Assembly: GCA_022564515.1 (NCBI GenBank)
Contig: JADFLH010000017.1
Span: 1-29,015 of the forward strand
Reading direction: 5' to 3'
DNA: 29,015 bases
DNA from: Nitrososphaerota archaeon
GTDB lineage: Archaea > Thermoproteota > Nitrososphaeria > Nitrososphaerales > Nitrosopumilaceae
Shown: in pieces, positions 300 through 26,127 of the stretch
Layout of the letters: every line of letters starts with the position of its first letter
Numbering within the stretch: the first letter of the stretch is position 1
Translations under genes and position numbers: made by a program
The notes under the pieces: generated by a model
Told to the model about the DNA's origin: nothing
Databases searched by the model: none
The model's input: the letters and a program-made list of their open reading frames with translations, nothing else

Positions 300-439
300 C
301 TATTTAGACTTCATAAAATTAGTTCAAATCTCCACCGAATGGGGTTCGAATATGAAGGGTTCCATGTCAAAAACGATGCGAATCTTTTTGTGCGTAAAAT
401 TTTGTTTTGGATAATCCTGAATAGATTACCCAGATAGTT

Positions 440-458
440 AACAGTTCGTATCAAATGT
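440..458 (+). repeat. dispersed intergenic 19-mer, copy 1 (exact consensus AACAGTTCGTATCAAATGT)
   Basis: Exact 19/19. Flanked by tt...aaa. Lies in the 695-bp non-coding spacer 227-921. Confidence 0.85.
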
Positions 459-489
459 AAATCAAGATTCTTTTTCTAGAGATAGGACG

Positions 490-548
490 AGAATAAAGCC
501 AGAATCGAGCGATGATGGGGCAAACATATGCGGCTGTGACTTTATTCT
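490..548. other. inverted repeat / hairpin in a locally G+C-enriched patch (possible structured RNA)
   Basis: AGAATAAAG (490-498) is perfectly complementary to CTTTATTCT (540-548), with a 41-nt loop. It sits in the comparatively GC-rich stretch 482-595 of an otherwise very AT-rich spacer. Strand and function unknown. Confidence 0.25.
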
Positions 549-921
549 TCTATGTAATCTAACGCGGCTTGGAATAAAAGCAGGCTGGAAAATTACTTCA
601 AAATTGGTTACCAAATTGGAAAATAATTAATTATTTTTTCATTTTAGATAACTAGTAGTAGCTTATTTGCACATACAACTTCCCAAATCTCAGATTTGAA
701 GGTCAGATTACATCTAAAACACTTTCAAACCATTTTTAATACATTGAATAAAAGTAAATTTTAGATATAAAGATACTAAATGTTTTGTACAGTTTTTTCA
801 TTACATGAACATTACTTCTGAAAATCTGAAGTTTTTTTCATTTTTTATTTTTTCTCAAATTTTTTATGGCTAGATAAATGACAAGGATTTACATGATTAT
901 CATCTATTCTAAATTTGGAAA

Positions 922-1542
922 ATGACTAGCATTTTAGAGACGTTGAGCGAGTTTTCCTATATTGGAATTTTTGTTCTGCTAATTGGTGTCAATGCAGCTC
1001 CTCTCTTTATGCCACCCACTTGGATAATTTTGGCATCATTTTACGCATTGGAATCTGATTTAAATCCATTTTTTCTTGCTGTAGTAGGGGCCACAGGAGC
1101 AACCATCGGCAGATTTATTCTAAAACAAATTAGCAGTTTCTTTCGAAACCTTGTAGGAAAGGAACAAAAAACAAATCTCGACGCAATAGGAAATTTCCTA
1201 AATCATAAAAAGTATGGGTATGCTTTGGCTTCCTTCATTTTTGCAGCCACTCCGTTGCCAAGCAATATGTTATTTGTTGCATATGGCATGATGCGTGCCA
1301 AAAGTATTGGTCTTTACGTGGGATTCTGGTTGGGACGAATTGTATCATATTATATCATGATTACAATAAGCGGAGTTGTTCTTACCCCATTCTTAGAATT
1401 ATTTGAAGAAAAATATGTTGGAATCTTGGTTGCTGATGGGATTGGAGTAGCATCTGTAATTTTATTCACATCTATAAATTGGAGTTTATTACTAACACAA
1501 AGAAAATTAAAATTAGTTAGACCAAAACTTTGGCGGTTATAA
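922..1542 (+). CDS. DedA/VTT (SNARE-associated, PF09335-like) family membrane protein
   Basis: 206-aa ORF with several hydrophobic helices. GATGATIGRF and AATPLPSNML motifs resemble the DedA/TVP38 family. Family call is by eye. Confidence 0.6.
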   Translation: MTSILETLSEFSYIGIFVLLIGVNAAPLFMPPTWIILASFYALESDLNPFFLAVVGATGATIGRFILKQISSFFRNLVGKEQKTNLDAIGNFLNHKKYGYALASFIFAATPLPSNMLFVAYGMMRAKSIGLYVGFWLGRIVSYYIMITISGVVLTPFLELFEEKYVGILVADGIGVASVILFTSINWSLLLTQRKLKLVRPKLWRL

Positions 1543-1543
1543 G

Positions 1544-2164
1544 TTGGAAAAATTAAGGAAATTAAAAAATGAGGTAAAAAATAGTGTTCCAAATGATCCT
1601 GCACATGATTTTGAACACATAATGCGTGTTTACAAAAATGCAGAAAAATTAGCAAAAAAAGAAAATGCCAATACTAAACTTGTGTTATGTGCTGCCTTAT
1701 TGCATGATGTGGTATCATTTTCTAAATCCGATAAGCGTTCAAAAAAATCATCAATTAAAAGTTCAATCAAAGCAACAAAGATTCTAAAAAAATACAATTT
1801 TTCCAAAACTGAAATTAAAATTGTAAGCGATGCAATTAGAGAACACAGCTTTTCGCAAAATAAAACTCCAAAAACTTTAGAAGGAAAAATCCTTCAAGAT
1901 GCAGATAGACTTGATGCTATAGGATCTATAGGAATTGCAAGAGTATTTGCAGTTGCAGGATCTGATGGACGAGCATTTTATAATGAATTAGACCCATTTT
2001 GTGCTAGACGGAAACCAAATGATCAAAGGTGGACATTAGATCATTTTTACAGAAAACTATTGAAACTTGAAAAGTTAATGAACACAAAAGCAGCAAAAAC
2101 CGAGGCAAAAAGAAGAACAAAAATTCTACAAATCTATCTTACCGAACTGAAAAAGGAGCTTTAA
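1544..2164 (+). CDS. HD-domain metal-dependent phosphohydrolase
   Basis: AHDFEH...LLHDV...QDADRLDAIG are classic HD-superfamily motifs. TTG start 1 nt after the upstream stop. The first in-frame ATG would delete the first His motif, so the TTG start is favoured. Confidence 0.8.
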   Translation: MEKLRKLKNEVKNSVPNDPAHDFEHIMRVYKNAEKLAKKENANTKLVLCAALLHDVVSFSKSDKRSKKSSIKSSIKATKILKKYNFSKTEIKIVSDAIREHSFSQNKTPKTLEGKILQDADRLDAIGSIGIARVFAVAGSDGRAFYNELDPFCARRKPNDQRWTLDHFYRKLLKLEKLMNTKAAKTEAKRRTKILQIYLTELKKEL

Positions 2165-2472
2165 CCATAGTCTACATATCTGTCGTATCGCTTTTCAATC
2201 TCCTTATTGAGACCATTAGTGATTTGCTCAATCTCAGTTTTTTTTCTACTTTGAATGTACTTGTAAATTTCTTCCAATGCTTCATTGCCTGAAAGTGATT
2301 CAAAAAGAGGGTCAAGTAGTGATATGTATTCAATAACTTTATTCCTATATTCCTCTCTTGTGGGATTTTTTTTTCCATTAAACCTAAACCATGTTGTTGT
2401 CCATGTGGCACCAACCACGTGGGGAAGCAAATCAAAAGCACGTTCTATTTCAAACCTTTGATTTTCGTTCAT
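2161..2472 (-). CDS. hypothetical protein, last gene of the hemA-hemB operon
   Basis: 103-aa ORF. Its ATG overlaps the hemB stop (ATGA, 2469-2472). No recognisable family. Confidence 0.6.
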   Translation of the reverse strand: MNENQRFEIERAFDLLPHVVGATWTTTWFRFNGKKNPTREEYRNKVIEYISLLDPLFESLSGNEALEEIYKYIQSRKKTEIEQITNGLNKEIEKRYDRYVDYG

Positions 2473-3479: not shown

Positions 3480-4745
3480 CTAATCTGGGTATTCTTTTTT
3501 CTTGTAATCGAACAGTTTACTTGCGGCCTCTAGAATCTCTGGATTTCCTTGTTCTGAAGCTTTTCTAAGATTGTTCATTGGTTGAGATAAGATGCTCTCT
3601 ACAATCGCCTTTGTCAACTCATCAATTATCTTGATTTTTTCTACATCATCTTCCCCTAACATTCGTAATGCTTTTTTCAATTCTTTTTCCCTAAAAGAGT
3701 TAATGTTTTTGAAAACATCTTTTACAATTGGTTCAGCATCTAATCTATTCATCGAGGCTTCTAAAACTGGTAGTTCGTCGTTAATTATATTTTCAACGGT
3801 TTTCACTTTTGCCATTCTACTTTTCATGTTCTTATCTGCCAGCTCGGCTATCTGATCAAGATTCATGAGTTTTATTCCACTCACAGTGGAAACCTTCTCA
3901 TCCACTGTTCTAGGATTTGACAAATCCAAAATCATCATTCCTTTTTGATTTTCTTTCGTTGCATTCAATATTCTTTCATGGGTCACAAGAAAATAAGGAG
4001 CCGTGGTAGCAACAAACAACACATCATAGTTATGGAAACCAGATAACACCTCTTCAAATTTTACTGGAACCCCTCCCATTCGTTCACAAAATGCTTTTGA
4101 CCTTTCAAGTGTTCTGCTGGTAACAAAAAATGGATAGCCTCTTCTTATAAGAGATTTGGTGACAAGAGTTGAAATGTCTCCCGTACCTATTACCAAAATC
4201 TGTTTTGATTTTAATTCATCAATATTTTCTTCTACAAGTTTTACCGCCATAGAACCTATTGAAATACTACCTTTACTAATTCCTGTAGAATTTCTTATTC
4301 TGGTCCCAATGTGAACTGCCTTGTCAAATAAAGTGTTAAGATGTTGCCCTGAGGCTTTTGCAGCCCTTGCTTTTGTAATAGACGCCTTGATCTGTCCTAG
4401 AATTTGCTCTTCACCAATTACCATAGAGTCCAGTCCTGATGTTAATTTCAACAAATGATAGTATGCTTGGTTATTTTTGCTTAGTTTAAGATTTTCCTTG
4501 AAAGCATTTTCTTCTAAACCCACAAGAGAGGCCCATGTTTTTTTTATTTTCTCGATATTGAAATTTTTTCCTGCACCAAATAATTCAATACGGTTACAGG
4601 TTTGAACAATTACACATTCATCCAATCCAGAGTGTTCTTTAAACTGGGAATAAGCATTATCCATATCCCAGAAACTAAATTTCTCAAGAACATGGATGGG
4701 GCAATTGCGAAAAGTTACTCTTGCATTAATAATATCTTGATTCAC
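3480..4745 (-). CDS. hemA: glutamyl-tRNA reductase
   Basis: VQTCNRIELF catalytic-Cys motif and VIGTGDIS NADPH-binding motif. GTG start overlaps the sirC stop (GTGA), with GAGGAG 6-7 nt upstream. Confidence 0.93.
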   Translation of the reverse strand: MNQDIINARVTFRNCPIHVLEKFSFWDMDNAYSQFKEHSGLDECVIVQTCNRIELFGAGKNFNIEKIKKTWASLVGLEENAFKENLKLSKNNQAYYHLLKLTSGLDSMVIGEEQILGQIKASITKARAAKASGQHLNTLFDKAVHIGTRIRNSTGISKGSISIGSMAVKLVEENIDELKSKQILVIGTGDISTLVTKSLIRRGYPFFVTSRTLERSKAFCERMGGVPVKFEEVLSGFHNYDVLFVATTAPYFLVTHERILNATKENQKGMMILDLSNPRTVDEKVSTVSGIKLMNLDQIAELADKNMKSRMAKVKTVENIINDELPVLEASMNRLDAEPIVKDVFKNINSFREKELKKALRMLGEDDVEKIKIIDELTKAIVESILSQPMNNLRKASEQGNPEILEAASKLFDYKKKEYPD

Positions 4746-5395
4746 TTTTGTCTCCTCAACATCAACATTGCCCTATTCTGTGCTTTTTCAAGTTTTTCAT
4801 CTTTTATTAATTGTTTAATCTTCATATCATTTAAAACAGAATAGAGAAATTTTTTTCGTTCTTTTTGAGTTGAAATTTTTTCCTTCGCTGCGTTTCTTAC
4901 GATCTGCTGAAGTTTAATCTGATAAATCTCTTCTTTGTTTACAATTTTTTTGAATATTTTTTCAGCCTGTATTCTTAGCTTGCGAGCCATGGCAGGACTT
5001 TTTCCACCGGTAGATATTGCAATTTGAACCGTATCTTCTATGTTTATTACCGATGGATGAGAAAAATCACTTACTTTAGGATCATCTATTGCATAAACAT
5101 AGCATCTCATTTTTTTTGCTTTTTCTACAATTTTTCGGTTAAGTTGTTTATCATCAGTTGCTGCCATAACCAAAAATGGTTTGTATTTTGAAAGAAAACT
5201 GGTATTTTTTAGTTTGATTTTTTTGAAGCCAATCTTTTTTTCTTTTACGTATTTTGATAACTGAGTATTGATCTTATCGCTAATAACTAAGATTTTACAA
5301 TTCTGTGTAAGTAAAGAATTCACTTTTCTTAGACCCTCTGTACCTCCCCCTACGACAATTACTAAATTTTCCCTCAGGTTGAGATCCACAATCAA
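4742..5395 (-). CDS. sirC: precorrin-2 dehydrogenase / sirohydrochlorin ferrochelatase (CysG N-terminal / Met8-like)
   Basis: N-terminal Rossmann motif VVGGGTEGLRKV. About 217 aa. Located next to hemA/hemB. TTG start preceded by a GGAGG Shine-Dalgarno-like sequence. Confidence 0.8.
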   Translation of the reverse strand: MIVDLNLRENLVIVVGGGTEGLRKVNSLLTQNCKILVISDKINTQLSKYVKEKKIGFKKIKLKNTSFLSKYKPFLVMAATDDKQLNRKIVEKAKKMRCYVYAIDDPKVSDFSHPSVINIEDTVQIAISTGGKSPAMARKLRIQAEKIFKKIVNKEEIYQIKLQQIVRNAAKEKISTQKERKKFLYSVLNDMKIKQLIKDEKLEKAQNRAMLMLRRQK

Positions 5396-5809: not shown

Positions 5810-5838
5810 TTAAGAAATTACCAGATTTCAGGATTTCA

Positions 5839-5850
5839 TAACAATTGTTA
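5839..5850. repeat. perfect 12-bp palindrome TAACAATTGTTA
   Basis: Self-complementary. Lies 9 nt upstream of 19-mer copy 2 and uses the same TAACA/TGTTA arms as the dispersed element. Confidence 0.6.
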
Positions 5851-5859: not shown

Positions 5860-5878
5860 AACAGTTCGTATCAAATGT
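5860..5878 (+). repeat. dispersed intergenic 19-mer, copy 2 (exact)
   Basis: 19/19. Lies in the divergent spacer between the start-less ORF (5809) and the AhbA/B-like gene (ATG at 5957). Confidence 0.85.
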
Positions 5879-5956
5879 TTGAAATTTTTGATAGTAGATT
5901 CAATGAATCACGCTACATTTTTAATTGAATACGTAAATTCTTTGATATTGGCTGTA

Positions 5957-6970
5957 ATGGATAATCTCGATAAAGAAATTCTTAACGAAATACAATGGGT
6001 ATTTCCCCTTGTACCACAACCATATCACGAAATTTCAAAAAAATTTAATATTTCAGTTGATGAGGTCAAAAAAAGACTAACTCGATTAAAACAAAATGGA
6101 ATACTAAGACAGCTTAGTGCAATTTTTGATACCAGAAAACTTGGATACAAGAGCTCATTGATAGCAGCGCAAATAGAATCTGGTAAACTTGAGAGTGTGG
6201 CTCTTCAAATAAATCGACATCCTGGTGTTAGTCATAATTATGAACGAAATCATCAGTTTAATCTTTGGTTTACTATAGCAGTTCCACCAGGTTCTGATCT
6301 AAAAACCGAAGTTGATAAATTTAAAAAAATTCCTGGAATTCTTAAAATTAGAATGTTGCCTACCATTAAACTCTTTAAAATTGGAGTAAAACTCGATATG
6401 GTAGAAGATAAAAAACATGAAATAGCGCCAACTGAAGAAAAGAAAGTTATTCGTAACGAAAAATTTGTTGCAACAGAAGAAGATAAAGAATTCATCCGTG
6501 AACTTCAAAAAGATTTGGAAATTATTGATAACCCATTTTTGAAGGCTGCCCAAAAACTTGGAATGACTGAAGAACAAATTTTTGAGAAGCTAAAAAATTA
6601 TGAGGAAATAGGTGTGATGAGAAGATTTGCTGCAATTCTAAGACATCGGGATGCAGGTTTTGTAGCAAATGGAATGATTGTATGGAAGGTTCCTGATGAA
6701 AGAATTTCTGAAGTTGGAGAAAAACTTGGCGCATTTCCACAGGTTAGTCACTGTTATCAGAGACCTGTTTATCCAGATTGGCCTTACAATGTTTTTTCCA
6801 TGATTCACTGCAAATCAGAAACTGAAGCAGCTGAGATGGCAAAAACAATTCAAAGTCAAATTAATGTAGACGAATACAAAATTCTATTTAGCGCTAAAGA
6901 ATTCAAAAAAATACGTGTAGAATACTTTGTTGAAAACGAGTTTACTTTAAAAGATAAAATTCCTGCTTAA
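5957..6970 (+). CDS. ahbAB: siroheme decarboxylase, fused AhbA/AhbB (NirD/L-like) with two Lrp/AsnC-type HTH modules
   Basis: Two tandem modules: LDKEILNEIQ...ISVDEVKKRLTRLKQNGILRQLSAIFDTRKLGY and DKEFIRELQ...GMTEEQIFEKLKNYEEIGVMRRFAAILRHRDAGF. Start placed at ATG 5957 (MDNLDKEIL). The track ORF begins at TTG 5879, which abuts the repeat at 5860-5878. Confidence 0.8.
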   Translation: MDNLDKEILNEIQWVFPLVPQPYHEISKKFNISVDEVKKRLTRLKQNGILRQLSAIFDTRKLGYKSSLIAAQIESGKLESVALQINRHPGVSHNYERNHQFNLWFTIAVPPGSDLKTEVDKFKKIPGILKIRMLPTIKLFKIGVKLDMVEDKKHEIAPTEEKKVIRNEKFVATEEDKEFIRELQKDLEIIDNPFLKAAQKLGMTEEQIFEKLKNYEEIGVMRRFAAILRHRDAGFVANGMIVWKVPDERISEVGEKLGAFPQVSHCYQRPVYPDWPYNVFSMIHCKSETEAAEMAKTIQSQINVDEYKILFSAKEFKKIRVEYFVENEFTLKDKIPA

Positions 6971-10299: not shown

Positions 10300-10416
10300 A
10301 AATCAAATGGAATTTTTCTATATATAACACAGACGAATTTTAGCTAGTCCTAACAGATATTCTAAGAATTTAGAATCTCATTTGATAATGATGAAAATAG
10401 AAAAGAAAGGGAGGGG

Positions 10417-15039: not shown

Positions 15040-15795
15040 ATGTCTGATCTAAAAAAACAAGATTACGAATTAGCTTTTACACATCTAAAAAATAATCAAA
15101 ATCTTTCAGCATATAATTTCTTTACCAACTTGGCAGAAACACAAAAGAAAGGAGATAGAATAAAGGCCGCATTATTCTATATACTAGCTGGTGAATGCAA
15201 ATCAAAGCAGGGAAAACCCAATGGTAAAGAACTTTTACAAGCTGGAAAATTATTTTTGGACTATGGAAAAAAAGACAAAACCTACAAAGCAAAAGGTGCT
15301 TACCTTTGCGCATCAAAATGTTTCATGAGAGCTGGTGAATACACCGATGCCAAAAAAGCCTTTAATAAAGCAAAAGAATTTCATGTACCTTCTATTGAAA
15401 TTTCTAGACCTGTAGTTGTTATTGATGACAGCAAAGCAATATTATTGAAACTTAAAAATTATCTAGATAATCTTGGATACAGTGATTATCATTCCTATCT
15501 TTCTGGAAAAGAAGGAATCATTGGCATTAAAAAATTAATTAATGATTCTAAAAATCCAATAGTTTTGCTTGACATGGGTTTGCCAGATATTAGTGGCGAT
15601 GTTGTTGCAACAAAGCTATTAGGCGAAAAACTTGATTTGCCAATAATTCTAATTACCGCAGATGAAAAAACAACAAAAAGAGTTAAATCAACAATCAGCT
15701 CTGGGGTAGCTGCATTTATTCAAAAACCATTTACTATTACTGAACTGAAAACGGCTCTGGATATGGCGGAAAAAGAATATTCTTTATCGCAATAG
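15040..15795 (+). CDS. response regulator receiver protein with N-terminal helical (TPR-like) domain and no recognisable output domain
   Basis: C-terminal CheY-like receiver: VVVIDDSKA...VLLDMGLPDISG...PIILITAD...FIQKPF. The N-terminal ~125 aa is helical and Lys/Ala-rich. Confidence 0.85.
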   Translation: MSDLKKQDYELAFTHLKNNQNLSAYNFFTNLAETQKKGDRIKAALFYILAGECKSKQGKPNGKELLQAGKLFLDYGKKDKTYKAKGAYLCASKCFMRAGEYTDAKKAFNKAKEFHVPSIEISRPVVVIDDSKAILLKLKNYLDNLGYSDYHSYLSGKEGIIGIKKLINDSKNPIVLLDMGLPDISGDVVATKLLGEKLDLPIILITADEKTTKRVKSTISSGVAAFIQKPFTITELKTALDMAEKEYSLSQ

Positions 15796-15834: not shown

Positions 15835-15845
15835 TTTTCTTTTTT
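15835..15845 (+). terminator. oligo-T tract downstream of the response-regulator gene
   Basis: ttttctttttt lies 40 nt after the stop. Archaeal termination typically uses oligo-T. It abuts 19-mer copy 3. Confidence 0.35.
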
Positions 15846-15862
15846 ATTTGATACGAACTGTT
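15844..15862 (-). repeat. dispersed intergenic 19-mer, copy 3 (17/19)
   Basis: Minus strand reads AACAGTTCGTATCAAATAA. Lies between two convergent 3' ends (15795 and 15900). Confidence 0.8.
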
Positions 15863-15899: not shown

Positions 15900-16556
15900 T
15901 TATCCTGACTGTTGTCCAATCACTACTGTTCCCACAAATACAGCACCGTTGGTTGTAGTCAACTTGAATTGCGTATCCCGTCCAGACTTGAAATCGGTAT
16001 CAAGTGCCAGCAATATTGTAGCTGTTTGACCAGGTTGAAACTCAGCTGCGCCTTCTAGCAGCATGAGGTCAGTTATACCATCTTCGGATAACCAAACATC
16101 GTATGTTCCACCTGGAATACTACTTGCCGCACCTTGGGCATCGAGTGTTGCTGCTTTAGCATAGGTATAGACTGTTCCACCAAATCTTAATTCACTGATC
16201 AGCATCTTTTGAACACTGTCATTTTTGAGATAGATGGCAATTCTTTCATGCTTCTGATTTATGCTATCTGCATTTCCACCTGAGGCTGCTAGGAGCACTG
16301 GACCGCCATCATGGGTTTGCAATGTCGAAACATCACGTCCATCATAACCTAGAATCTTGATCAGTTCTATAGTTGGCGTACCGCTAATTTGTGATTGGCT
16401 AAAGAATCCTTGAGCAAAGACAAAGATTATTGTGCCTCCTACAACTGCAATTGCCACCAACAGAAGTGTCGCAATGACTGGAGCTACTGCTCTATGTTTT
16501 CTTGTTCTTTTTGGTTTTATAGTATTTGCCAACTTGCCCTTTGAATAATAATACAT
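15900..16556 (-). CDS. archaeal type IV pilin-like protein (class III signal peptide)
   Basis: N-terminus KRTRKHRAVAPVIATLLLVAIAVVGGTIIFVF is the archaeal prepilin/flagellin-type signal plus hydrophobic helix. The remainder is Gly/Thr/Ala-rich. Confidence 0.85.
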   Translation of the reverse strand: MYYYSKGKLANTIKPKRTRKHRAVAPVIATLLLVAIAVVGGTIIFVFAQGFFSQSQISGTPTIELIKILGYDGRDVSTLQTHDGGPVLLAASGGNADSINQKHERIAIYLKNDSVQKMLISELRFGGTVYTYAKAATLDAQGAASSIPGGTYDVWLSEDGITDLMLLEGAAEFQPGQTATILLALDTDFKSGRDTQFKLTTTNGAVFVGTVVIGQQSG

Positions 16557-16706
16557 AACATTTGTTAAGCCAAATGCTGTTCAAAATGCACAACAATCAA
16601 TACCTTCAATCAAAAGAATATCAGGGAATTTAACCAAGTTTACAAACCATGCGCTTGAGAAGATTTGAAGCAAAAATTCAAAAACGTGATAAATATCTCT
16701 ATTATA

Positions 16707-17207
16707 ATGAGTAAAGATTCATGGTCTAATCTTGATAAAGTGGATCAAAAAATTATCGAAATTTTGAATAAAAATGCAAGAACACCATCAAAAGAGATTG
16801 CGACTGAATTAAGAAAATCTGGACACGATGTTTCAGATAGGACGATTAGAAAAAGGATTGAAAGGTTAGAAAAAAGCGGAGTTATCCAAGGATACAAGGC
16901 AGTACTTACTGATGTTTCAGGGCCAAATTATTATGAAGCTGCATTCCTAAAACTAAAACCAACAAAATCACTAGAATCTGTTAAAAATTCTATAATTGAT
17001 TTTACAGCAAAATTGCCAAATAATCTTCTTGTTGCAAATTTAGATGGAGAATGGAATATGTTTTCTATAATGAAAATAGAGCCAGATCAAAATCAACCAT
17101 CACTAAAAATAATAGAAAAATTTTCAGACGATATAATCGATTATAGGATAAATGAACTTGATATAAAAAATGTAAATTTATTGAATATGTCATTATTATT
17201 ATTGTGA
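16707..17207 (+). CDS. Lrp/AsnC family transcriptional regulator
   Basis: LDKVDQKIIEILNKNARTPSKEIATEL...DRTIRKRIERLEKSGVIQGY HTH. Start placed at ATG 16707. The track uses TTG 16665. Confidence 0.85.
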   Translation: MSKDSWSNLDKVDQKIIEILNKNARTPSKEIATELRKSGHDVSDRTIRKRIERLEKSGVIQGYKAVLTDVSGPNYYEAAFLKLKPTKSLESVKNSIIDFTAKLPNNLLVANLDGEWNMFSIMKIEPDQNQPSLKIIEKFSDDIIDYRINELDIKNVNLLNMSLLLL

Positions 17208-17222: not shown

Positions 17223-17241
17223 TTCAGTTCGTATCAAATGT
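17223..17241 (+). repeat. dispersed intergenic 19-mer, copy 4 (17/19)
   Basis: TTCAGTTCGTATCAAATGT lies 16 nt after the lrp stop and is followed by aaattaaagaaaaaagaaa. Confidence 0.8.
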
Positions 17242-17501: not shown

Positions 17502-17520
17502 AACAGTTTGCATAAAGTGT
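17502..17520 (+). repeat. dispersed intergenic 19-mer, degenerate copy 5 (15/19)
   Basis: AACAGTTTGCATAAAGTGT, flanked by tt...taa, so the palindromic arms are retained. Confidence 0.55.
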
Positions 17521-18171: not shown

Positions 18172-18190
18172 AACAGTTCGAATCTAATGT
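18172..18190 (+). repeat. dispersed intergenic 19-mer, copy 6 (17/19)
   Basis: AACAGTTCGAATCTAATGT lies between convergent 3' ends (18111 and 18213). Confidence 0.75.
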
Positions 18191-18212: not shown

Positions 18213-19640
18213 TTATTCTGTTAAAGTAGCAGTTGGATAGAACCTCATTTGGGTAAGTACAGAACCCTTATTTTCATAATCAAATCCATAGAGTACAATA
18301 TCAGCTATAATGAAAATCCATGTTTCTATGAATTCTTGACATCCGTCTTGTGTTGCAAGAAATTCTTGGAATTCTGCATCAGTCAAGGGGAGCATAAAGT
18401 CTCCAGTGATTGCAGCTATTGAGGCTTCTGTTTCACCAAAGTCTTCAGGCTCAAGCACGCCATCACCATCCGTGTCCACAGCAGCATTACAAATAACTCC
18501 ACTCCATGTAAATAGATCAGTAATTTCTATTGCTTTGCTTTTTCCTTTTCCTTTAACTGGTTCTGGGTCTTCAAATCTTTCAAGACCAAATTCTGTTTTT
18601 TTGAAGACAGCTCCTTTGTTTGTTATGAGACCCAATCCTATTATTGAAGTGTCTGTACAGTCGAGTACTTCACCTCCTTCTCCTTCAGGAAATCCTTGAG
18701 TTATCGCATTAGCTAATCTGATATCATTTTCTGAAACGAAACCATTCCCATCTACATCTAGGTAAACAGTTTCACCCAAATCAAATGCAGCTGTACCACC
18801 AGAAGAATCATTCTCATGTTTTTCATCGCCATTAAAATTAACTATAACTCGTCCTGCATCAGAATTAAAATCTTCATCAGGATCACCATCAGCAACAACT
18901 GAACCATCAGCAAATGCTCCTTGAGTGGAAGCATTGGCTAATCTGATATCATTTACTGAAACGAAACCATTCCCATCTACATCTCGGTAAATAGTTTCAC
19001 CCACATCAAATTTAGTAGGATCACCACCAGAATCATTCTCATGTTTTTCATCACCAGCAAAAGCACTTAAAACGAGTCCGGTTCCTCCAGCTTGTGCATC
19101 TGGATCAAGGGTTCCAACAACTGAATTATCTGCAAACGCTGGTAGAAAGTTACACGCGTCTATCAATTTAGGATGAGTTAGCATTACTGCGCTTGGATCA
19201 CCACCACCACCGTTGTTTGGTTTTCCAAGTATTCTCCAATAGACTTGCATTTCTACAGCTTCTAACTGGATAAGTGCTGGGTCAAGAGGGCCAGTATTTC
19301 CAAACGGATCTGCACATGGATCAAGTACTCGAAGAATGTTAAAGCCTGATGCTCTCTTATTTGAAACAAAGTTTATCTCAGATGTACCATCTATGGGTAC
19401 AAATATTGAAGAACCAAACGGTTCAGCTGCATCAGAATTGTCACAGTTAAAGAATGGTTTTTTCCCATGAATATTTATAGTTCCGTGTTCTCCACTCGGG
19501 AATCCATTACTCCATTCTATTACTGCTTGTGGTTTCTTAGCACTTGCTAAAAGATTTTCACCTGCACCATAAACACCAGCAATGATCATGGAGATCGTAA
19601 TTGTCAAAATTACCGCATTTCTAGCTGATGATGTATTCAT
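18213..19640 (-). CDS. secreted or cell-surface protein with an internal 75-aa duplication and three EF-hand/dockerin-like calcium-binding loops
   Basis: Signal/anchor sequence MNTSSARNAVILTITISMIIAGVYGAG. The loop DVDGNGFVSxND occurs twice and DTDGDGVLEPED once, and each fits the 12-residue EF-hand loop pattern (D1, D3, D/N5, G6, hydrophobic 8, D12). Start placed at ATG 19640. The track uses GTG 19664. Confidence 0.75.
   Translation of the reverse strand: MNTSSARNAVILTITISMIIAGVYGAGENLLASAKKPQAVIEWSNGFPSGEHGTINIHGKKPFFNCDNSDAAEPFGSSIFVPIDGTSEINFVSNKRASGFNILRVLDPCADPFGNTGPLDPALIQLEAVEMQVYWRILGKPNNGGGGDPSAVMLTHPKLIDACNFLPAFADNSVVGTLDPDAQAGGTGLVLSAFAGDEKHENDSGGDPTKFDVGETIYRDVDGNGFVSVNDIRLANASTQGAFADGSVVADGDPDEDFNSDAGRVIVNFNGDEKHENDSSGGTAAFDLGETVYLDVDGNGFVSENDIRLANAITQGFPEGEGGEVLDCTDTSIIGLGLITNKGAVFKKTEFGLERFEDPEPVKGKGKSKAIEITDLFTWSGVICNAAVDTDGDGVLEPEDFGETEASIAAITGDFMLPLTDAEFQEFLATQDGCQEFIETWIFIIADIVLYGFDYENKGSVLTQMRFYPTATLTE
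18693..18836 (-). repeat. intragenic repeat unit 2 (aa 277-324 of the 483-aa track ORF)
   Basis: FNGDEKHENDSSGGTAAFDLGETVYLDVDGNGFVSENDIRLANAITQG. Long identical nucleotide runs are shared with 18918-19061. Confidence 0.85.
18918..19061 (-). repeat. intragenic repeat unit 1 (aa 202-249 of the 483-aa track ORF)
   Basis: FAGDEKHENDSGGDPTKFDVGETIYRDVDGNGFVSVNDIRLANASTQG. The repeat period is 225 nt. Confidence 0.85.
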
Positions 19641-19789
19641 TACATGTTGTCTTTTTGTTACCACAAACTCGCATCAGCAATTTGTATAATTATCAAGTAG
19701 TGTGTTCATTTTTTACGCAACATAGACCAAAAATATGAGAAATGATGATTATAATTGATAAAGAATGAGTTTAAAGGAAATTTAAAAAA

Positions 19790-20150: not shown

Positions 20151-20169
20151 AACAGTTTGTAACAAATGT
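20151..20169 (+). repeat. dispersed intergenic 19-mer, copy 7 (17/19)
   Basis: AACAGTTTGTAACAAATGT flanked by tt...ta. Lies between the tbp 3' end (20282) and the start of ORF 19790-20038. Confidence 0.75.
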
Positions 20170-20281: not shown

Positions 20282-20842
20282 CTAATCGTAATAGATCAAG
20301 TTTTTTTCCTCAAGAGTATTGTGAATATTATGTATGGCCCGAAAAACTTCGTGAGTGGATTTGCCTCCAGTGCATACCAATTTTCCTGAGGCAAAAATCA
20401 AAATTACAGTTTTTGGATCAATCATCCTATGAACCAAACCAGGAAACTGTTCAGGCTCATACATGCTTTTTGGTAGCACCCTTGCTGCTTGCTCTAGGTG
20501 AATCCTGCCACCAAGATTTATTGCAGAGACTATATTTTCTACTGTGACTTTGGGCTCATTTTTTATTTTGACATTTTTAGCTCGAAGTTTTTCGACAACA
20601 TTACTTACTGCCCTTTTTGCCATATCTTCTGATTTTGCACCCGTACATACCATGTTTCCAGTGCGGAAAAGCAGGATTGCAGTTTTTGGTGATTTTAGTT
20701 TGAAAATTGCCCCAGGAAACTTTTTTGGATGATATTCCACCTCAGGAAATTTTTTTGTTATATCATCAAGGTCAAGTGCTTGTTCTACTGTGGCAGATAC
20801 AACTACATTTTCTATGCTGACAATAGGCTTTGTTTGTGGCAT
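20282..20842 (-). CDS. tbp: TATA-box binding protein
   Basis: Two imperfect direct repeats: IENVVVSATV...YHPKKFPGAIFKLKSPKTAILLFRTGNMVCTGAKS and VENIVSAINL...YEPEQFPGLVHRMIDPKTVILIFASGKLVCTGGKS. Confidence 0.95.
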   Translation of the reverse strand: MPQTKPIVSIENVVVSATVEQALDLDDITKKFPEVEYHPKKFPGAIFKLKSPKTAILLFRTGNMVCTGAKSEDMAKRAVSNVVEKLRAKNVKIKNEPKVTVENIVSAINLGGRIHLEQAARVLPKSMYEPEQFPGLVHRMIDPKTVILIFASGKLVCTGGKSTHEVFRAIHNIHNTLEEKNLIYYD

Positions 20843-20963
20843 TTTTTAAACTTCATGGTCTTTTTTGATCACGCCAATACTATTTTGATTTCACTAACAG
20901 GATGGTTTGAGATTTTTTTGTGTAAGATAGCTGTGAATTGTTCGATGAATGTTAAATCACATC

Positions 20964-21216: not shown

Positions 21217-21235
21217 ACTACTGATAAGAACTGTT
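21217..21235 (-). repeat. dispersed intergenic 19-mer, degenerate copy 8 (15/19)
   Basis: Minus strand reads AACAGTTCTTATCAGTAGT, preceded by tt. Lies 34 nt upstream of ORF 21269. Confidence 0.5.
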
Positions 21236-21268: not shown

Positions 21269-21472
21269 GTGAATTTCACAGAAATTGAAGAACACATGAA
21301 ACTGGCCCATGAGGAATTTGGTACAATAAACAGCCTAAGAAAATCTGATGCAAGCCACTTTGAGAAACAAAGATTGCAAGATGCTCTGAGACATTACAAC
21401 AAGATTAGAGAAAAATATCATACCAAAAAAGCTGAAATAGCAAACAACATTTTACACATAGCTGAATTGTGA
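21269..21472 (+). CDS. hypothetical small protein (weak)
   Basis: 67-aa ORF with a GTG start and charged helical composition. An oligo-T tract and a 19-mer copy follow its stop. Confidence 0.3.
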   Translation: MNFTEIEEHMKLAHEEFGTINSLRKSDASHFEKQRLQDALRHYNKIREKYHTKKAEIANNILHIAEL

Positions 21473-21501: not shown

Positions 21502-21506
21502 GATTA

Positions 21507-21525
21507 ACATTTGACACAAACTGTA
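21507..21525 (-). repeat. dispersed intergenic 19-mer, copy 9 (16/19)
   Basis: Minus strand reads TACAGTTTGTGTCAAATGT followed by taa. Lies between convergent 3' ends (21472 and 21619). Confidence 0.65.
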
Positions 21526-21618: not shown

Positions 21619-22545
21619 TCATTTGTAAACAATAGTTCCTGATTTGAGCTTTGCTGCCTTTCTTGCTTTTCCGACGGCAGCTATGACCGCATTTTTGCCA
21701 GTGTTTTCAGCAAATCGTATAGCTGCTTTGACCTTTGGTTTCATGCTACCTTCCTCAAATTTTCCATCATCCCAAAGCTCTTTCAGTTTATCTGCCCGTA
21801 TTTTTCTTATCAGTTTTTTGTTTTTGCTTCTGAAATTTTCGTAGGCACCTGCCACATCTGTCAAGCTGACAAACACAGAAGCACCTATGCTAGTGGCAAG
21901 TACCTCGCTTGCAAGATCCTTGTCGATAACTGCTTCAGTAAAGACGATTTTATTTTTATTTATCACAGGGATTCCTCCACCACCACATGCAATCACTATA
22001 TAGCCATCTTCAATGAGCTCCTTTACGGCATTGAGTTCTATAACGGAAATCGGGTTTGGTGATGGTACAACTCTTCTGAATTTTCCTGGTACCATCTCTC
22101 TGAAAGATGCCGAAGGTTGTAACTTTTTGATCTTACGAAGCTCATCTTTTGTAAAAAATGAACCTATCGGCTTTGTTGGGTTTTTGAATGCAGGATCTTT
22201 TGCTAAAACCGTCACATTTGTGATCAGACTTGCAACTTTAAAGTCTCTTCCTAGATGTCCCAGCAATGAAGCCTGAATCATTGCTCCCAACATCCCCTGT
22301 GTTTCTGCAACACATGCATAAAGCGGTAATGGTGGAACAAGATCCTTTGCACACTCGTTTCTCAACATAGCGTCTCCTACCTGCGGACCGTTACCGTGGG
22401 TGATCACTATCTTGTATCCATCTCTTGCAAGACTTGCTATTTCCTTTGTAGCATCTCTTATTGCACTATATTGGGAATCAAATGTTCTTGACACATTTGC
22501 TATAGCGTTGCCACCAAGGGCAAGAACTATAATTTCTTTTGACAA
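21619..22545 (-). CDS. arcC: carbamate kinase
   Basis: IVLALGGNAI, VITHGNGPQVG and ACGGGGIPV are carbamate kinase / amino-acid-kinase family signatures. 308 aa. Confidence 0.9.
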   Translation of the reverse strand: MSKEIIVLALGGNAIANVSRTFDSQYSAIRDATKEIASLARDGYKIVITHGNGPQVGDAMLRNECAKDLVPPLPLYACVAETQGMLGAMIQASLLGHLGRDFKVASLITNVTVLAKDPAFKNPTKPIGSFFTKDELRKIKKLQPSASFREMVPGKFRRVVPSPNPISVIELNAVKELIEDGYIVIACGGGGIPVINKNKIVFTEAVIDKDLASEVLATSIGASVFVSLTDVAGAYENFRSKNKKLIRKIRADKLKELWDDGKFEEGSMKPKVKAAIRFAENTGKNAVIAAVGKARKAAKLKSGTIVYK

Positions 22546-23118: not shown

Positions 23119-23239
23119 TCCCAAGCGCAGGAGTTGAACCTGCGACAACCCGGTTTCTGTATGCCTGATATGCTGTTATTCGGTCAGCCTAAAGCCAACA
23201 ACTACAGCCGGAAGCTCTACCAGGCTGAGCTAGCTTGGG
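23119..23239 (-). tRNA. tRNA-Tyr (anticodon GTA) with a 47-nt intron at the canonical 37/38 position
   Basis: Manual fold. Acceptor CCCAAGC/GCTTGGG (C1:G72, A73: the archaeal tRNA-Tyr identity pair). D-arm GCTC-AGCCTGGTA-GAGC. Anticodon stem TCCGG/CCGGG with loop CT-GTA-G...A. T-arm GCAGG-TTCAACT-CCTGC. The intron is ~23155-23201, and its 3' part (UACAG) pairs with loop CUGUA, as expected for a bulge-helix-bulge substrate. No encoded CCA. Confidence 0.9.
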
Positions 23240-23355
23240 ACAAATTATTTCGCCCTATTCTAGTATTAAATAACTATCGAATGAAAATCGGAATTGAATC
23301 AAATTAGGCAGTCTTGATTGTGAACAAATAATTTTAAAATAATAAATAATAACTC

Positions 23356-23985
23356 TTGCCTTTAGAGAATCCATTGAGTCCTCAGGAAAACTCAACTAAC
23401 GGATATATCTGTGTTCCATATTTACATGATCATGATTCTATTGAATTGAAAGATACATGGTTTCATTCACAAGATATCAGTGATGTATATTTCGTAACTG
23501 CAACCTTTTCAAATGAAAGCAAGCTTTACTTTCCTACATGTGCAAATCATTATTTATTGGCAAAATTCAATGACTGTGAAAAAATAAAAAAAGAAATTGA
23601 AAAATACAATAAAGAAAAAACATCTTTTGTTTTTAATATGGATGATGGTTTCTTTGAAAGAAATGCAGACGATTCAACGAACTTTATTTCTGTATATTAT
23701 TTAGATTATGGAGAAACACTAGATGATTTTATTGAAGTTGCAAATGTTATAGCTAACCGAGAAAAGGTGAAATGTGCAGGATTAGGCCATATGGATGTTT
23801 TTCCTGAAAGCACACCAAAGTTTACTTTTCCATATAGGGATAATATTGTCATTTTAGAAGTTTCAAGTGATAAAAGTTTTCAAAGTGTTAACCAATATTG
23901 CGAAAAAACTCGTCGTCAAATCAATAGAAAAGGGATCGTGATGACAAATTTGATTAGTTTTTCTATTCTTGAAAAGTTAAAATAG
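23356..23985 (+). CDS. hypothetical protein (island-borne; start uncertain)
   Basis: 209-aa ORF only if TTG 23356 is used. The first in-frame ATG is codon 94. An AT-rich TATA-like ttttaaaataataaataa lies 10-25 nt upstream of the TTG. No family recognised. Confidence 0.45.
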   Translation: MPLENPLSPQENSTNGYICVPYLHDHDSIELKDTWFHSQDISDVYFVTATFSNESKLYFPTCANHYLLAKFNDCEKIKKEIEKYNKEKTSFVFNMDDGFFERNADDSTNFISVYYLDYGETLDDFIEVANVIANREKVKCAGLGHMDVFPESTPKFTFPYRDNIVILEVSSDKSFQSVNQYCEKTRRQINRKGIVMTNLISFSILEKLK

Positions 23986-24044
23986 AAAAGTTAAACATGT
24001 CACGCGTCTAGTGCTCTTAATATCTCCCTATCTTAACATAAAAT

Positions 24045-24266
24045 GTGAAAAAACAGCGAAGCTTGCGGTTATTTGAGCAGATCCTGAAATCTGACTTGAC
24101 CAAAAAAGTCTACTTGCAGAGCCTCAACTACTTTAGGGAATATTGTAAAGTAAAGGATTTTGACTCGTTGCTTGATATTCCACCAAAAAAACTCCAGATG
24201 CTGATTGAGGATTATGTGATTTGCCTAAAGGGAAAAATTTCTCCAAATTCCATTCCTACCAGATAA
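24045..24266 (+). pseudogene. truncated tyrosine-recombinase (integrase) N-terminal SAM-like/core-binding fragment
   Basis: 73 aa: LFEQILKSDLTKKVYLQSLNYFREYC...IPPKKLQMLIEDYVICLKGKISPNSI follows the phage-integrase N-terminal domain pattern (S..T...Y...L..F ... I..Y...L....S..S). It stops far short of a ~300-aa integrase, and I could not read a catalytic domain in any downstream frame. The family call is by eye. Confidence 0.45.
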
Positions 24267-24486
24267 TTGAAGATAGAACTATGATTGATTCGATGCCGAT
24301 TTCATTGAATTACTTTGATAAATCTATGATCAAATCGACAGTTTTAATGAAATGAATTTCCAAAATTAATTCCTGAAAGATTCGGATTGAATGATAATTA
24401 TTCGTGCTCAGAATCATGTCAATTATGTCATGAGAGGATAACACAGACAGTTCTATATAGTCTTAGTAACGCCCTAGGAATAAGAT

Positions 24487-24642
24487 ATGAAGTACATGTG
24501 CAGGACCTGTAAAACACAATGTGATGATATTCCAAAACATATGATTACAGTACACAAATTTTCAAAAACACTGGTGGAATCCCAACTCAAATCAAACCCA
24601 AATTGTTATAAAAATTCCTTTGAAAATTTGAATAATGACTGA
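24487..24642 (+). CDS. small C2H2-like zinc-finger protein (51 aa, below the track cutoff)
   Basis: Own translation: MKYMCRTCKTQCDDIPKHMITVHKFSKTLVESQLKSNPNCYKNSFENLNNDStop. Spacing is C-x2-C-x9-H-x4-H. Confidence 0.4.
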   Translation: MKYMCRTCKTQCDDIPKHMITVHKFSKTLVESQLKSNPNCYKNSFENLNND

Positions 24643-24872
24643 AGTAAAATCACAATACAAGCAAAAAATAAGGAACCAGACAATAATTCAATTTAACAAA
24701 ATTCTAACAAACCAACCTTACATTATATCGTGAATCAATACGGATTTTTTATGCGTGAAAAAGGGGGATTCTATTTTTACTGATTGTCAATAAAAAGGGA
24801 AAGCCACTCGCCCCAGCACAAATTCTGCCTATAACTAACGTTATGACGTGAGTGTGATATGTTGGAAAGGTT

Positions 24873-24891
24873 AACAGTTCGTATCAAATGT
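24873..24891 (+). repeat. dispersed intergenic 19-mer, copy 10 (exact)
   Basis: 19/19. The full unit ttAACAGTTCGTATCAAATGTtaa (24871-24894) is 18/24 self-complementary. An A8 run follows. Confidence 0.85.
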
Positions 24892-24896
24892 TAATG

Positions 24897-24904
24897 AAAA
24901 AAAA
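24897..24904 (-). terminator. T8 tract downstream of ORF 24928-25110
   Basis: Minus-strand tttttttt lies 24 nt after the stop and 5 nt before the 19-mer copy. Confidence 0.35.
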
Positions 24905-24927
24905 GTTAGTCAGCAACATTAACAAAA

Positions 24928-25110
24928 TCAATCTTTAAAATGCTTTTTGCTTTCGATATAGAAATTTTTTACCCAACAGTACTTCAATTCTTCCTGTGTA
25001 TGGTCCTTTTTGGGTTTTTGACATATTGGACATATCTCATTAGTTTTTTTAAATTTTGAGCCATAAGCCCCTGATATAGGGTCGTCCCTACTACTGTCAT
25101 ACAAGTCCAT
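24928..25110 (-). CDS. small Cys/His-containing hypothetical protein
   Basis: 60-aa ORF with ICPICQKPKKDHTQEELKYC (CxxC...H...C). A strong tttatataaa TATA box lies 21-32 nt upstream of the ATG, and the 22-nt shared element lies just beyond it. Confidence 0.5.
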   Translation of the reverse strand: MDLYDSSRDDPISGAYGSKFKKTNEICPICQKPKKDHTQEELKYCWVKNFYIESKKHFKD

Positions 25111-25149
25111 TACTACATCATTACACGGTTTTTTATATAAATCTCAAAG

Positions 25150-25171
25150 TGATTTAGCGAAATTGGAATCT
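25150..25171 (-). promoter_or_regulatory. 22-nt promoter-proximal element, copy B
   Basis: TGATTTAGCGAAATTGGAATCT matches 278-299 at 21/22. It starts 7 nt distal to the TATA box of ORF 24928-25110. Confidence 0.35.
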
Positions 25172-25251
25172 GAGTAATTGGTCTAATTCGCCATTATTTT
25201 TTTAACATCGAGTCTAAGAATTTTAATATACTCGGATTAACTACTAAAATT

Positions 25252-25359
25252 ATGAAATACTGCCATGATTGTTTAACTCCGATTAAGAGAGACTCAAAAG
25301 AAGAGTATTGTTCTTTTTGTAAAAGAGATAGAGCCCTTAAAGAAAGCTCTGCAGCTTAG
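25252..25359 (+). CDS. 4-Cys zinc-ribbon mini-protein (35 aa, below the track cutoff)
   Basis: Own translation: MKYCHDCLTPIKRDSKEEYCSFCKRDRALKESSAAStop (CxxC...CxxC). A ttttaatata TATA-like box lies ~25 nt upstream. Confidence 0.4.
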   Translation: MKYCHDCLTPIKRDSKEEYCSFCKRDRALKESSAA

Positions 25360-25532
25360 GACTCTGATTTTTAGTTAAACCATCAAGTGGTATTTTTGCA
25401 TTCACATTTTTTGTTTATCGAATCTTGAGGGTCAAACTTTGATTATGCCAGACTTGGATTGTGGAAGAAACCTATTCGTATTTTGAAGAAATTGGAATTT
25501 CTTTGCCAACAACGGACTTGATTGTCTGCGTT

Positions 25533-25874
25533 TTAGTTTCCATGCGTAATATCTTCTAGACGTTTTATGAAATACTCAGGTTTTTTCTTAAATTGTTCCA
25601 TACAATGTGGGCATCTGCAAAAGTGATAAGTTATTCCATCATGCTCAAGCATTGATGTCCATTCTATTGGTTTTTCTTTAAGGCAAACTGGGCATACAAC
25701 CAAGTCGATGATTTCTTGCAGATACTTCTGAGGGTCAGTTTTGAAAATATCAAGACATCCCTGACAGCAGAATCCGTATTCCTTATCATTGTGATGGTAA
25801 GAGACTGTGCTTTCTTTGGGAAGACGCAGTCTTACAAGAGAGCAACCACAAGTAGGACAGATTTCGGTCATCAT
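25533..25874 (-). CDS. YHS/TRASH-type metal-binding domain protein (two modules)
   Basis: CPTCGC...YGFCCQGCLDIFKTDPQKY and CPVC...YHFCRCPHCMEQFKKKPEYF both fit the YHS/TRASH pattern (Y-x-F-C-x2-3-C...F...P..Y). Confidence 0.75.
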   Translation of the reverse strand: MMTEICPTCGCSLVRLRLPKESTVSYHHNDKEYGFCCQGCLDIFKTDPQKYLQEIIDLVVCPVCLKEKPIEWTSMLEHDGITYHFCRCPHCMEQFKKKPEYFIKRLEDITHGN

Positions 25875-25960
25875 TTCTCATCCTTTTTCATGCTAAAATT
25901 ACTTAATTGCTGATCAAAAAGATCCCTGCCAAATCATAACATCACTATTTTTTAGCCAAT

Positions 25961-25979
25961 AACCGTTCGTATCAAATGT
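25961..25979 (+). repeat. dispersed intergenic 19-mer, copy 11 (18/19)
   Basis: AACCGTTCGTATCAAATGT followed by an A8 run. Lies in the divergent spacer between 25874 and 26128. Confidence 0.8.
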
Positions 25980-26127
25980 AAAAAAAAGGAACCACTGTTA
26001 CTGATATTTTACTTAATTTAATCCAAAAACATCAAAAATCAAAATAATATAATCTTAGATTGCATAATTATGATTAAATGAGTAAGGACGAAGAATTTTA
26101 TTTCCCCACAGAAATTGATGAATTGAA

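Follow-up and report, generated by a model that had tools for sequence, protein, structure and literature searches.

The window and its repeat copies

The subject of this work is a short repeat in a 29,015-nucleotide (nt) stretch of DNA from a Nitrososphaerota archaeon of the family Nitrosopumilaceae (contig JADFLH010000017.1 of assembly GCA_022564515.1), hereafter called the window. With a length of 19-26 bases and about one copy per 3 kb between the genes of the archaeal group to which the window belongs, it is a lineage-specific extragenic junction repeat of exchangeable gene cassettes, situated at the 3' edge of transcription units. The window has a G+C content of 33% and a gene set typical of Nitrosopumilales, comprising haem and sirohaem synthesis, TFB, TBP, ScpA/B, ribosomal protein S8e and SRP19, and it also codes for an archaeal pilin and a carbamate kinase. 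A search of the window for transfer RNA (tRNA) genes found none.

A preliminary description of the window had reported three exact copies of the 19-mer AACAGTTCGTATCAAATGT and eight further copies with 1-4 mismatches, and all of their coordinates check. They are given here together with a variant and a probable relic; the sign denotes the strand, and motif' is the reverse complement of the core, ACATTTGATACGAACTGTT.

440-458 (+): exact copy, between the gene fragment 2-250 (-) and the gene 922-1542 (+)
5831-5849 (-): variant (type-2) copy AACAATTGTTATGAAATCC, tail-to-tail with the copy at 5860 across a gap of 10 nt
5860-5878 (+): exact copy in the divergent spacer between a sirC-like gene, 4742-5395 (-), and an ahbAB-like gene, 5903-6970 (+), ending 24 nt before the ATG
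15844-15862 (-): 2 mismatches, in the convergent spacer between a response regulator gene, 15040-15795 (+), and a pilin gene, 15900-16556 (-); motif' lies 48 nt 3' of the response regulator stop, with TTTTCTTTT just before it
17223-17241 (+): 2 mismatches, 15 nt after the stop of an AsnC-type gene, 16665-17207 (+), in the minority orientation
17502-17520 (+): degenerate copy, 4 mismatches, 260 nt from the copy at 17223 and in direct orientation to it
18172-18190 (+): 2 mismatches, in a convergent spacer; motif' lies 22 nt past the stop of an EF-hand gene, 18213-19664 (-), behind TTTTTCTTTTTT
20151-20169 (+): 2 mismatches, between two minus-strand genes, 112 nt past the stop of the TBP gene, 20282-20842 (-)
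21217-21235 (-): degenerate copy, 4 mismatches, upstream of a small open reading frame (ORF), 21296-21472 (+)
21507-21525 (-): 3 mismatches; motif' lies 34 nt past the stop of the small ORF 21296-21472 (+), which is convergent with the carbamate kinase gene, 21619-22545 (-)
24873-24891 (+): exact copy; motif' lies 36 nt past the stop of a small Zn-binding gene, 24928-25110 (-), behind a T8 run
25961-25979 (+): 1 mismatch, in the divergent spacer between a YHS gene, 25533-25874 (-), and a Zn-ribbon gene, 26128-26271 (+), followed by A8
26322-26340 (-): probable relic, 6 mismatches; motif' lies 50 nt past the stop of 26128-26271 (+)

The set is not random: the 19-mer has 9 matches at up to 3 mismatches in the window, against 0.02 expected from dinucleotide-preserving shuffles, none of 100 of which reaches 9. 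A weight matrix gives 25-31 bits for the two 4-mismatch copies (17502 and 21217) and 28-41 bits for the other nine, a recovery that is partly circular because the matrix was built from the 11 reported copies; nothing else in the window scores above 8 bits. Of the three remnants proposed earlier, the one at 26322-26340 is plausible in the light of a copy of the same orientation downstream of the nitroreductase orthologue in locus L051, about 100 nt off by linear mapping, whereas those at 10378-10392 and 20936-20953 fall below 8 bits and lack support. The previously noted collapsed palindrome beside the copy at 5860 does exist, but it is part of the variant copy 5831-5849 of the same repeat. The strictly intergenic placement stands as described, with 0 of the 11 copies inside a Pfam-supported ORF or a called gene. 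The ORF 26055-26243 (-) is spurious, the real gene at that place being 26128-26271 (+), and the copy at 25961 therefore lies in a divergent spacer.

The last part of the window holds a cluster of very small Cys-rich, Zn-ribbon-like genes of 35-60 aa, namely 24487-24642 (+), 24928-25110 (-), 25252-25359 (+) and 26128-26271 (+), which ORF lists with a 60-aa cut-off miss or place on the wrong strand. A 51-aa member of this cluster belongs to a multi-copy family also found in L001, L006, L007, L022, L038 and L082.

Sequence and architecture of the unit

The repeat was further analysed in a pooled sample made of the window and 95 stretches that carry the exact 19-mer, 516 kb in all, with 274 copies at up to 3 mismatches. 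The full unit of about 26 bp reads RTT-AACAGTTCGTATCAAATGT-WAAT and is followed by about 10 A-rich bases. Viewed as a dyad, it takes the form ATTAACAGTT-CGTATC-AAATGTTAAT, with arms of 10 bp that match as an inverted repeat at 9 of 10 positions on either side of an asymmetric 6-bp centre; direct reading bears out that the stretch 24871-24894 is self-complementary at 18 of 24 positions. Each position of the core is conserved in at least 93% of the copies, except position 0 (77%). Conservation peaks in and around the centre, at 94-99%, and drops outward to 77-79% at positions -2, -1 and 0 and to 46% at +19. The pooled flanks, with T at -2 and -1 in 78-79% of copies and W, A (86%), A (77%) and T (68%) 3' of the core, agree with the TT before and WAA after the core that had been noticed in the window. 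With full copies masked, arm words taken as half-sites show only a 2-3-fold excess in intergenic over coding DNA, and the 19-mer is therefore the unit.

The repeat does not fall into the common classes of short repeats. The left and right flanks show no correlation of the kind that target-site duplications would leave (mutual information at most 0.07 bit), and an insertion sequence (IS) or miniature inverted-repeat transposable element (MITE) was rejected for lack of this signal and because the unit is too short for internal sequence. The spacing of copies, from 0 to more than 3000 nt, is irregular, which rules against clustered regularly interspaced short palindromic repeats (CRISPR). No Rfam family matched in the window at E<=1, and none reached its gathering score in 20 repeat-rich loci. 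The earlier exclusion of a CRISPR is upheld on these points, and the repeat is no known RNA family either.

As a single strand, the unit of about 26 bp folds at -2.6 to -3.5 kcal/mol. The value of -3.5 kcal/mol is attained only if the variable flank base W is T, as in 46% of copies; with the other flank variants tested, the fold is worth about -0.4 to -0.6 kcal/mol and does not surpass that of shuffles. A stable hairpin was accordingly rejected as the nature of the element, its stem reaching -3.5 kcal/mol at best, and the transcript 3'-end hairpin once proposed for it is weak. A role at the RNA level, in which a hairpin in the 3' untranslated region would stabilize or process transcripts, could draw on the fully symmetric 26-mer, which folds better than shuffles (z = -4), on tail-to-tail pairs of copies, which would form long hairpins, and on copies abutting stop codons, which must be transcribed. 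Such a role is nevertheless very improbable, given the weak and flank-dependent fold, the fact that the best-conserved bases are those of the unpaired centre, the lack of an Rfam match and the opposite orientation of 25% of the copies between tandem genes.

Distribution among genomes

The exact 19-mer is present in at least 12 Nitrosopumilales metagenome-assembled genomes (MAGs), and its carriers include marine NP-theta, NP-iota and NP-delta, hadal 'B..T..' MAGs, aquifer CSP1-1 MAGs and one 1.07-Mb long-read contig (CBDAOC010000020.1). Two tiny low-coverage contigs of the Rosenbergiella sp. YN46 assembly (L022 and L070) also carry the archaeal repeat together with its modules, and are almost certainly contaminating Nitrosopumilales DNA. 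The exact 19-mer was not found among the viral contigs of IMG/VR, and a viral origin was rejected on that basis.

Loci that were not seeded by the repeat are provided by the carbamate kinase homologues at 77-81% identity (L096-L101, 94 kb with overlaps; L109/L110), which contain neither a copy nor a substitute repeated word. Relatives at this level of identity are not syntenic with the window, and only L108 (93%) is informative. The carbamate kinase gene itself, 21619-22545, has homologues at 77-81% identity in L096, L099 and L109 whose gene neighbours are wholly different; its homology between the window and L109 stops within about 12 nt of both gene ends. Searches of the literature with the two 16-mer cores, one per strand, found neither, nor did they turn up a description of any such repeat in Thaumarchaeota.

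Placement relative to genes and neighbouring modules

Although 77% of the pooled sequence is coding, only 5 of the 274 copies lie inside confident genes. Genes were called approximately, with a codon-usage scorer trained on long ORFs that misses some small or atypical genes (e.g., the YHS gene 25533-25874 and the Zn-ribbon gene 25252-25359 of the window), so that the orientation classes that follow carry some error. In the size class of 60-150 nt, 14 of 26 convergent, 37 of 105 tandem and 5 of 32 divergent spacers hold a copy, and the element therefore goes with gene 3' ends rather than with promoters. Between tandem genes, motif' is co-oriented with the genes in 106 cases and opposed in 35, with a median spacing of 31 nt between the stop codon and motif' and of 132 nt between motif' and the following start. 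Of 107 non-redundant cases close to a stop, 16 have motif' starting 0-3 nt past it, and in ten of these the stop TAA is the element's own TTAA flank; such copies must therefore lie in the transcript, and a roadblock at this point could have no effect on its own gene.

In longer spacers, T6-9 usually ends 3-5 nt ahead of motif', and the core itself is devoid of T runs longer than 3. An A-run flank, previously thought to be nearly always present, does exist, but in the larger sample an A/T run of at least 5 within 30 nt on the relevant side accompanies only 28-49% of copies, depending on context. Since the A-run is equally common (49%) where the element has the minority orientation, the A/T tract apparently moves together with the element. 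Where two neighbouring copies are separated by less than 400 nt, their orientation is direct in 67 cases and inverted in 24. Inverted pairs that abut (gap 0-3, n=9) are always tail-to-tail, and their second member is usually a variant of the repeat, AACAGTTGTTATGAAATGT. This type-2 sequence always runs opposite to the closest canonical copy, with which it often forms a 38-bp near-palindrome by tail-to-tail contact. Besides 5831-5849 (-) in the window, the type-2 copies are as follows.

L088, 3022-3040
L068, 600-618
L067, 1148-1166
L095, 7203-7221

The flanks of the 19-mer are made of recurrent short modules in free combination. One of them, 'ttttgaaaagaatgctatctgatt', lies upstream of the copy at 18172 and also adjoins copies in L017, L023, L035 and L050. 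Another, the 25-nt module AATCCTGAAAATTCTTAATTCTTAG, has 76 copies at up to 2 mismatches in 487 kb and is followed, after about 17 nt, by the ATG of many small genes (L002, L004, L007, L017, L030, L064 and others; e.g., L064 702-718 and 3532-3548). To judge by this spacing, it looks like an unusually uniform promoter, with a TFB recognition element (BRE) and TATA box, of near-leaderless small genes. About half of its copies are directly preceded by motif', often with a gap of 1-2 nt; the module is not present in the window. A third module, of about 125 nt and non-coding, combines a conserved GGAAGC...GCTTCC stem with a conserved interior, has direct repeat copies at both sides and numbers at least seven members.

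L017, 1138-1260
L055, 631-753
L020, 239-362
L094, 1955-2080 and 4618-4744
Window, about 26362-26400: related piece

No Rfam family matches this module, which may represent a gene for a small RNA or a cassette that codes for no protein. In the window, the GC-rich hairpin GCTGAGGCGCGGACCGCTCAGC adjoins the piece GTTGGCTTCC.

The scarcity of copies in divergent spacers led to the rejection of a promoter element as the primary role of the repeat, in keeping with the earlier statement that an ordinary operator does not explain it. The broader proposal that the repeat serves a regulon as its operator or upstream activating site, or marks DNA for uptake, could appeal to its position directly upstream of the promoter module in about half of the copies of that module, to its frequency and identity across species, which recall uptake sequences, and to the presence of pilin genes. 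Against this, copies are least frequent in divergent spacers, which consist of promoters alone, and most frequent in the promoter-free convergent ones, and the neighbouring genes are functionally unrelated; neither idea explains the association of copies with homology breakpoints reported below, and both are regarded as remote.

The same placement gives a better footing to a terminator or insulator, in which a clade-specific DNA-binding protein positioned just past the oligo-T would block read-through into the next promoter or the convergent gene. The co-orientation of motif' with the upstream gene (106:35) at a short distance from its stop, the T6-9 tract that often ends 3-5 nt ahead of the element, the invariable tail-to-tail arrangement of abutting pairs and the BRE/TATA-like module often found within 1-2 nt after the element all speak for it. 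A comparable layout is found in the roadblock terminators of RNA polymerase I (Reb1/Nsi1, and TTF-I at the 'Sal box' with its T-rich release element), which are likewise oriented and specified protein-type sites a few bases past a T-rich tract. The repeat differs from them in that many copies are without a T tract, abut the stop, decay and turn over, and in a link to breakpoints that has no counterpart there. In the 16 of 107 cases that start 0-3 nt past the stop without a T tract, polymerase would even stall before the gene end, the A/T tract is as frequent in the 'wrong' orientation, and sampled relatives with the same transcription machinery have neither the element nor a substitute motif. 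Moreover, a site of 19 bp cannot recur by point mutation, so a copying mechanism would be needed anyway, and neither the neutral decay of copies nor their breakpoint association is accounted for. We consider a terminator or insulator improbable as the primary function, though still a live candidate; of the terminator-type idea put forward in the preliminary description, the tie to gene 3' ends is retained, while a simple roadblock fails for the copies next to the stop.

Decay and turnover of copies

The degenerate copies carry mismatches in 17-25% of cases at the six G/C positions versus 3-14% at A/T positions, the commonest changes being C7 to T and G8 to A, as expected of AT-biased neutral decay. 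Strain contigs 99.8% identical to the window retain the copies unchanged, the copy at 440-458 included, and the copy at 24873 is kept exactly in L072, in a region 89.5% identical. Between the window and L108 (93% identical and collinear over 4.9 kb), the three degenerate copies of the window are shared, those at 21217 and 21507 having identical sequences, mismatches included, at orthologous places, and that at 20151 differing at 3 of 19 positions. An orthologous pair with 92% identity includes one copy that has lost 5 of its 19 positions to decay. In genomes 70-80% identical, copies vary in presence and orientation, with an unchanged consensus.

As a specified sequence of 19 bp cannot recur by point mutation, its spread points to templated copying, by recombination or transposition. 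The copies thus appear to arise in perfect form by a templated process and then to decay neutrally, rather than being selected one by one. The earlier dismissal of mobility, founded on the short length and the lack of target-site duplication, is not sustained, since copies turn over, decay and sit at cassette junctions.

Homology between loci ends at copies

The ends of homology between loci fall within 5 nt of a copy in 30% of cases. The corresponding shares are 8% among intergenic positions drawn at random and 3.5% among gene boundaries. When true breakpoints were defined by the presence of at least 500 nt beyond them in both loci and by the absence of collinear continuation, 373 of 1144 (33%) lay within 8 nt of a copy. 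At least one true breakpoint was found at 165 copies, and only 6 were merely spanned by homology. Where both flanks of a copy have homologues (n=63), the same partner is kept in 12 cases and not kept in 51.

The DNA between copies behaves correspondingly. Forty-four segments bounded by copies at both ends have homologues in other contexts, at 74-99% identity; the majority contain one gene, coding for 40-394 aa, and some are free of genes. In the comparison of L080 with L091, the flanks are 95-97% identical and the cassettes between the bounding copies differ. The one clean filled/empty pair is formed by L052, arranged as X-copy-777 nt-copy-Y, and L038, arranged as X-copy-Y, in which X is 91% and Y 99% identical. 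In the window itself, the synteny blocks shared with L016, L053/L084 and L030 stop in spacers with a copy in one or both genomes, among them the spacer of the copy at 5860-5878 (L016) and that of the copy at 440-458 (L053/L084). The copies mark exact positions of single-gene insertion, loss or exchange among related genomes.

A metagenome contig 99.8% identical to the window (L102; 9.7 kb, k141 naming) ends 2 nt before the copy at 440-458, which hints at a population-level branch point at this copy.

Nature of the repeat

A protein recognizing the site is likely, and an enzyme of DNA recombination or transposition fits better in this role than a nucleoid organizer. The most likely mechanism, advanced tentatively and at somewhat less than even confidence, is that a sequence-specific DNA recombinase uses the repeat as its core site, the enzyme itself being inferred. 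This reading is favoured because the best-conserved region includes the asymmetric centre, whereas in a plain dimeric site the centre would be least constrained, and because the 10-6-10 layout matches the plan of tyrosine-recombinase core sites. It has been established that the latter are imperfect inverted repeats around a spacer of 4-10 bp, dif being organized as 11-6-11 (PMC2958812). The 10-6-10 repeat, with its 9/10 arm symmetry, fits this plan, although dif is a single copy near the replication terminus and the repeat has 11 copies in 29 kb. According to this model, the 10-bp arms would be the recombinase-binding parts, and the asymmetric CGTATC would be the strand-exchange region that also gives the site its direction. 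Each cassette would carry one copy just past its stop codon, as integron cassettes carry attC, and new copies would appear only along with new DNA. The oligo-T ahead of motif' and the promoter module after it would represent the terminator and the promoter of adjacent cassettes; a boundary or terminator role of the repeat would be a possible secondary use, not one that the model needs.

Several points weigh against a dedicated recombinase. The same junctions would be expected if homologous recombination acted on short repeats scattered through the DNA, and two thirds of the breakpoints lie away from copies. Copies also occur beside housekeeping genes (the haem operon, TBP), where active recombination would be harmful, and a quarter of those between tandem genes are turned the other way. 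The arms are short and AT-rich, so that the 10-6-10 reading could be fortuitous. No circular contigs, as expected of excised cassettes, were seen, and in a search of the 516 kb of loci for a recombinase beside the arrays, a tyrosine-recombinase regular expression found nothing and a XerD phmmer query only one integrase, in L054. The 95 loci were seeded by exact copies, a choice that biases densities as well as absolute fractions and leaves orthologous empty sites under-sampled. Finally, the loci come from MAGs, which can mix strains, a concern tempered by the facts that the k-mers commonly used in assembly exceed the repeat in length and that the pattern recurs in assemblies of independent projects.

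The integrase locus L054 contains an intron-bearing tRNA gene at about 80-178, missed by ARAGORN, followed by the tyrosine integrase at 182-1477 (PF00589, E = 4e-14) and by genes of an integrated mobile element, and has a copy of the repeat at its far end, 4945-4963. This integrase was rejected as the recombinase of the repeat, as it adjoins a tRNA gene in the manner of an ordinary integrated element.

On the other hand, the repeat could be a selfish element copied alone by a transposase, HUH/RAYT-like (RAYT, REP-associated tyrosine transposase) or other, in the manner of the repetitive extragenic palindromes (REPs) and bacterial interspersed mosaic elements (BIMEs) of enterobacteria and pseudomonads. 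Such copies would be tolerated only downstream of genes, and shuffling would follow from the passive homology that they offer to ectopic recombination. As in REPs, the unit is a short, imperfect, multi-copy palindrome that is extragenic, found at 3' ends, more frequent in convergent and tandem than in divergent spacers and rare where there are only promoters. Like BIMEs, it forms mosaic clusters with other short modules and has a second sequence type that alternates in orientation with the first, tail-to-tail, as Y and Z units do; it is also lineage-specific, decays neutrally and is a hotspot of rearrangement. The differences lie in the archaeal host and in the AT-rich, very weak stem (-3.5 kcal/mol at best), unlike the GC-rich hairpins of REPs. 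No IS200/RAYT-like gene was seen in the 516 kb of loci by phmmer and tblastn, a weak test with two approximate queries. No insertion polymorphism of the bare unit was seen either, since all 12 collinear flank pairs are filled and no orthologous site lacks the unit alone; the one clear filled/empty pair differs by the whole 777-nt insert, and a target-site duplication signal is missing. Independent copying of this type is therefore regarded as unlikely, if still a serious contender.

Relation to known cassette systems and significance

The repeat can be described as REP/BIME-like in its distribution and, by analogy, attC/pdif-like in its behaviour. The attC sites of integrons measure 55-141 bp, contain L''/L' arms and extrahelical bases, and are recognized as a folded single strand; their ends are the core sites R'' (RYYYAAC) and R' (GTTRRRY), and the integron platform consists of intI, attI and Pc. 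With the ends ATTAAC and GTTAAT, the repeat agrees with these core sites at 6 of 7 positions at each end, which may be chance in AT-rich DNA. As in the species-uniform attC sites of the chromosomal integrons of Vibrio cholerae (V. cholerae repeats, VCRs), a lone small ORF is followed by one imperfect inverted repeat, into which its stop codon often extends; both systems have arrays in direct orientation, cassettes in varied contexts, non-coding cassettes and a repeat that is uniform within the lineage. The repeat-bounded segments likewise show the arrangement that defines integron cassettes, in which each unit pairs one ORF with one site and occurs in changing order and surroundings. The repeat differs from attC in being shorter (26 bp) and conserved in sequence rather than in folded structure. 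In addition, many marine and hadal repeat cassettes carry their own promoter module, absent from the window, and copies are also scattered beside housekeeping genes in both orientations. No intI/attI/Pc platform was found, and no tyrosine-recombinase signature lies next to the arrays in the 516 kb, which represent a partial sample of the genomes.

The pdif modules of Acinetobacter plasmids offer a second parallel, as they also have imperfect arms around a 6-bp asymmetric centre and many copies that bound small gene modules in varied contexts. The arms of pdif and dif measure 11 bp, against 10 bp in the repeat, which is chromosomal; pairs of the repeat are mostly direct, while pdif sites alternate. 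Taken as a whole, a clade within Nitrosopumilales might possess a hitherto undescribed integron-like cassette system built on a sequence-defined 26-bp core of 10-6-10 design in place of a folded attC, with a presumed recombinase, in which a cassette would comprise promoter, gene, terminator and site and be excised from and inserted at many chromosomal sites; we hold this extended proposal to be possible, though rather doubtful.

As far as literature searches tell, the repeat would be the first REP- or attC-like element in the phylum. It explains the assembly of these regions into short contigs. Ammonia-oxidising archaea have tiny, streamlined genomes. According to long-read population studies, most of their diversity takes the form of numerous small insertions and deletions that affect one or a few genes (PMC12379486). 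A fixed 19-bp sequence at the edges of single-gene segments would give that variation a concrete molecular handle. We know of no mechanism behind these small insertions and deletions. The repeat could be sought where structural variants are joined, used to fish for the enzyme and taken as a guide to the limits of cassettes in MAGs. If it exists, the cassette system would be the source of the small structural variants that prevail in the flexible part of these streamlined genomes.

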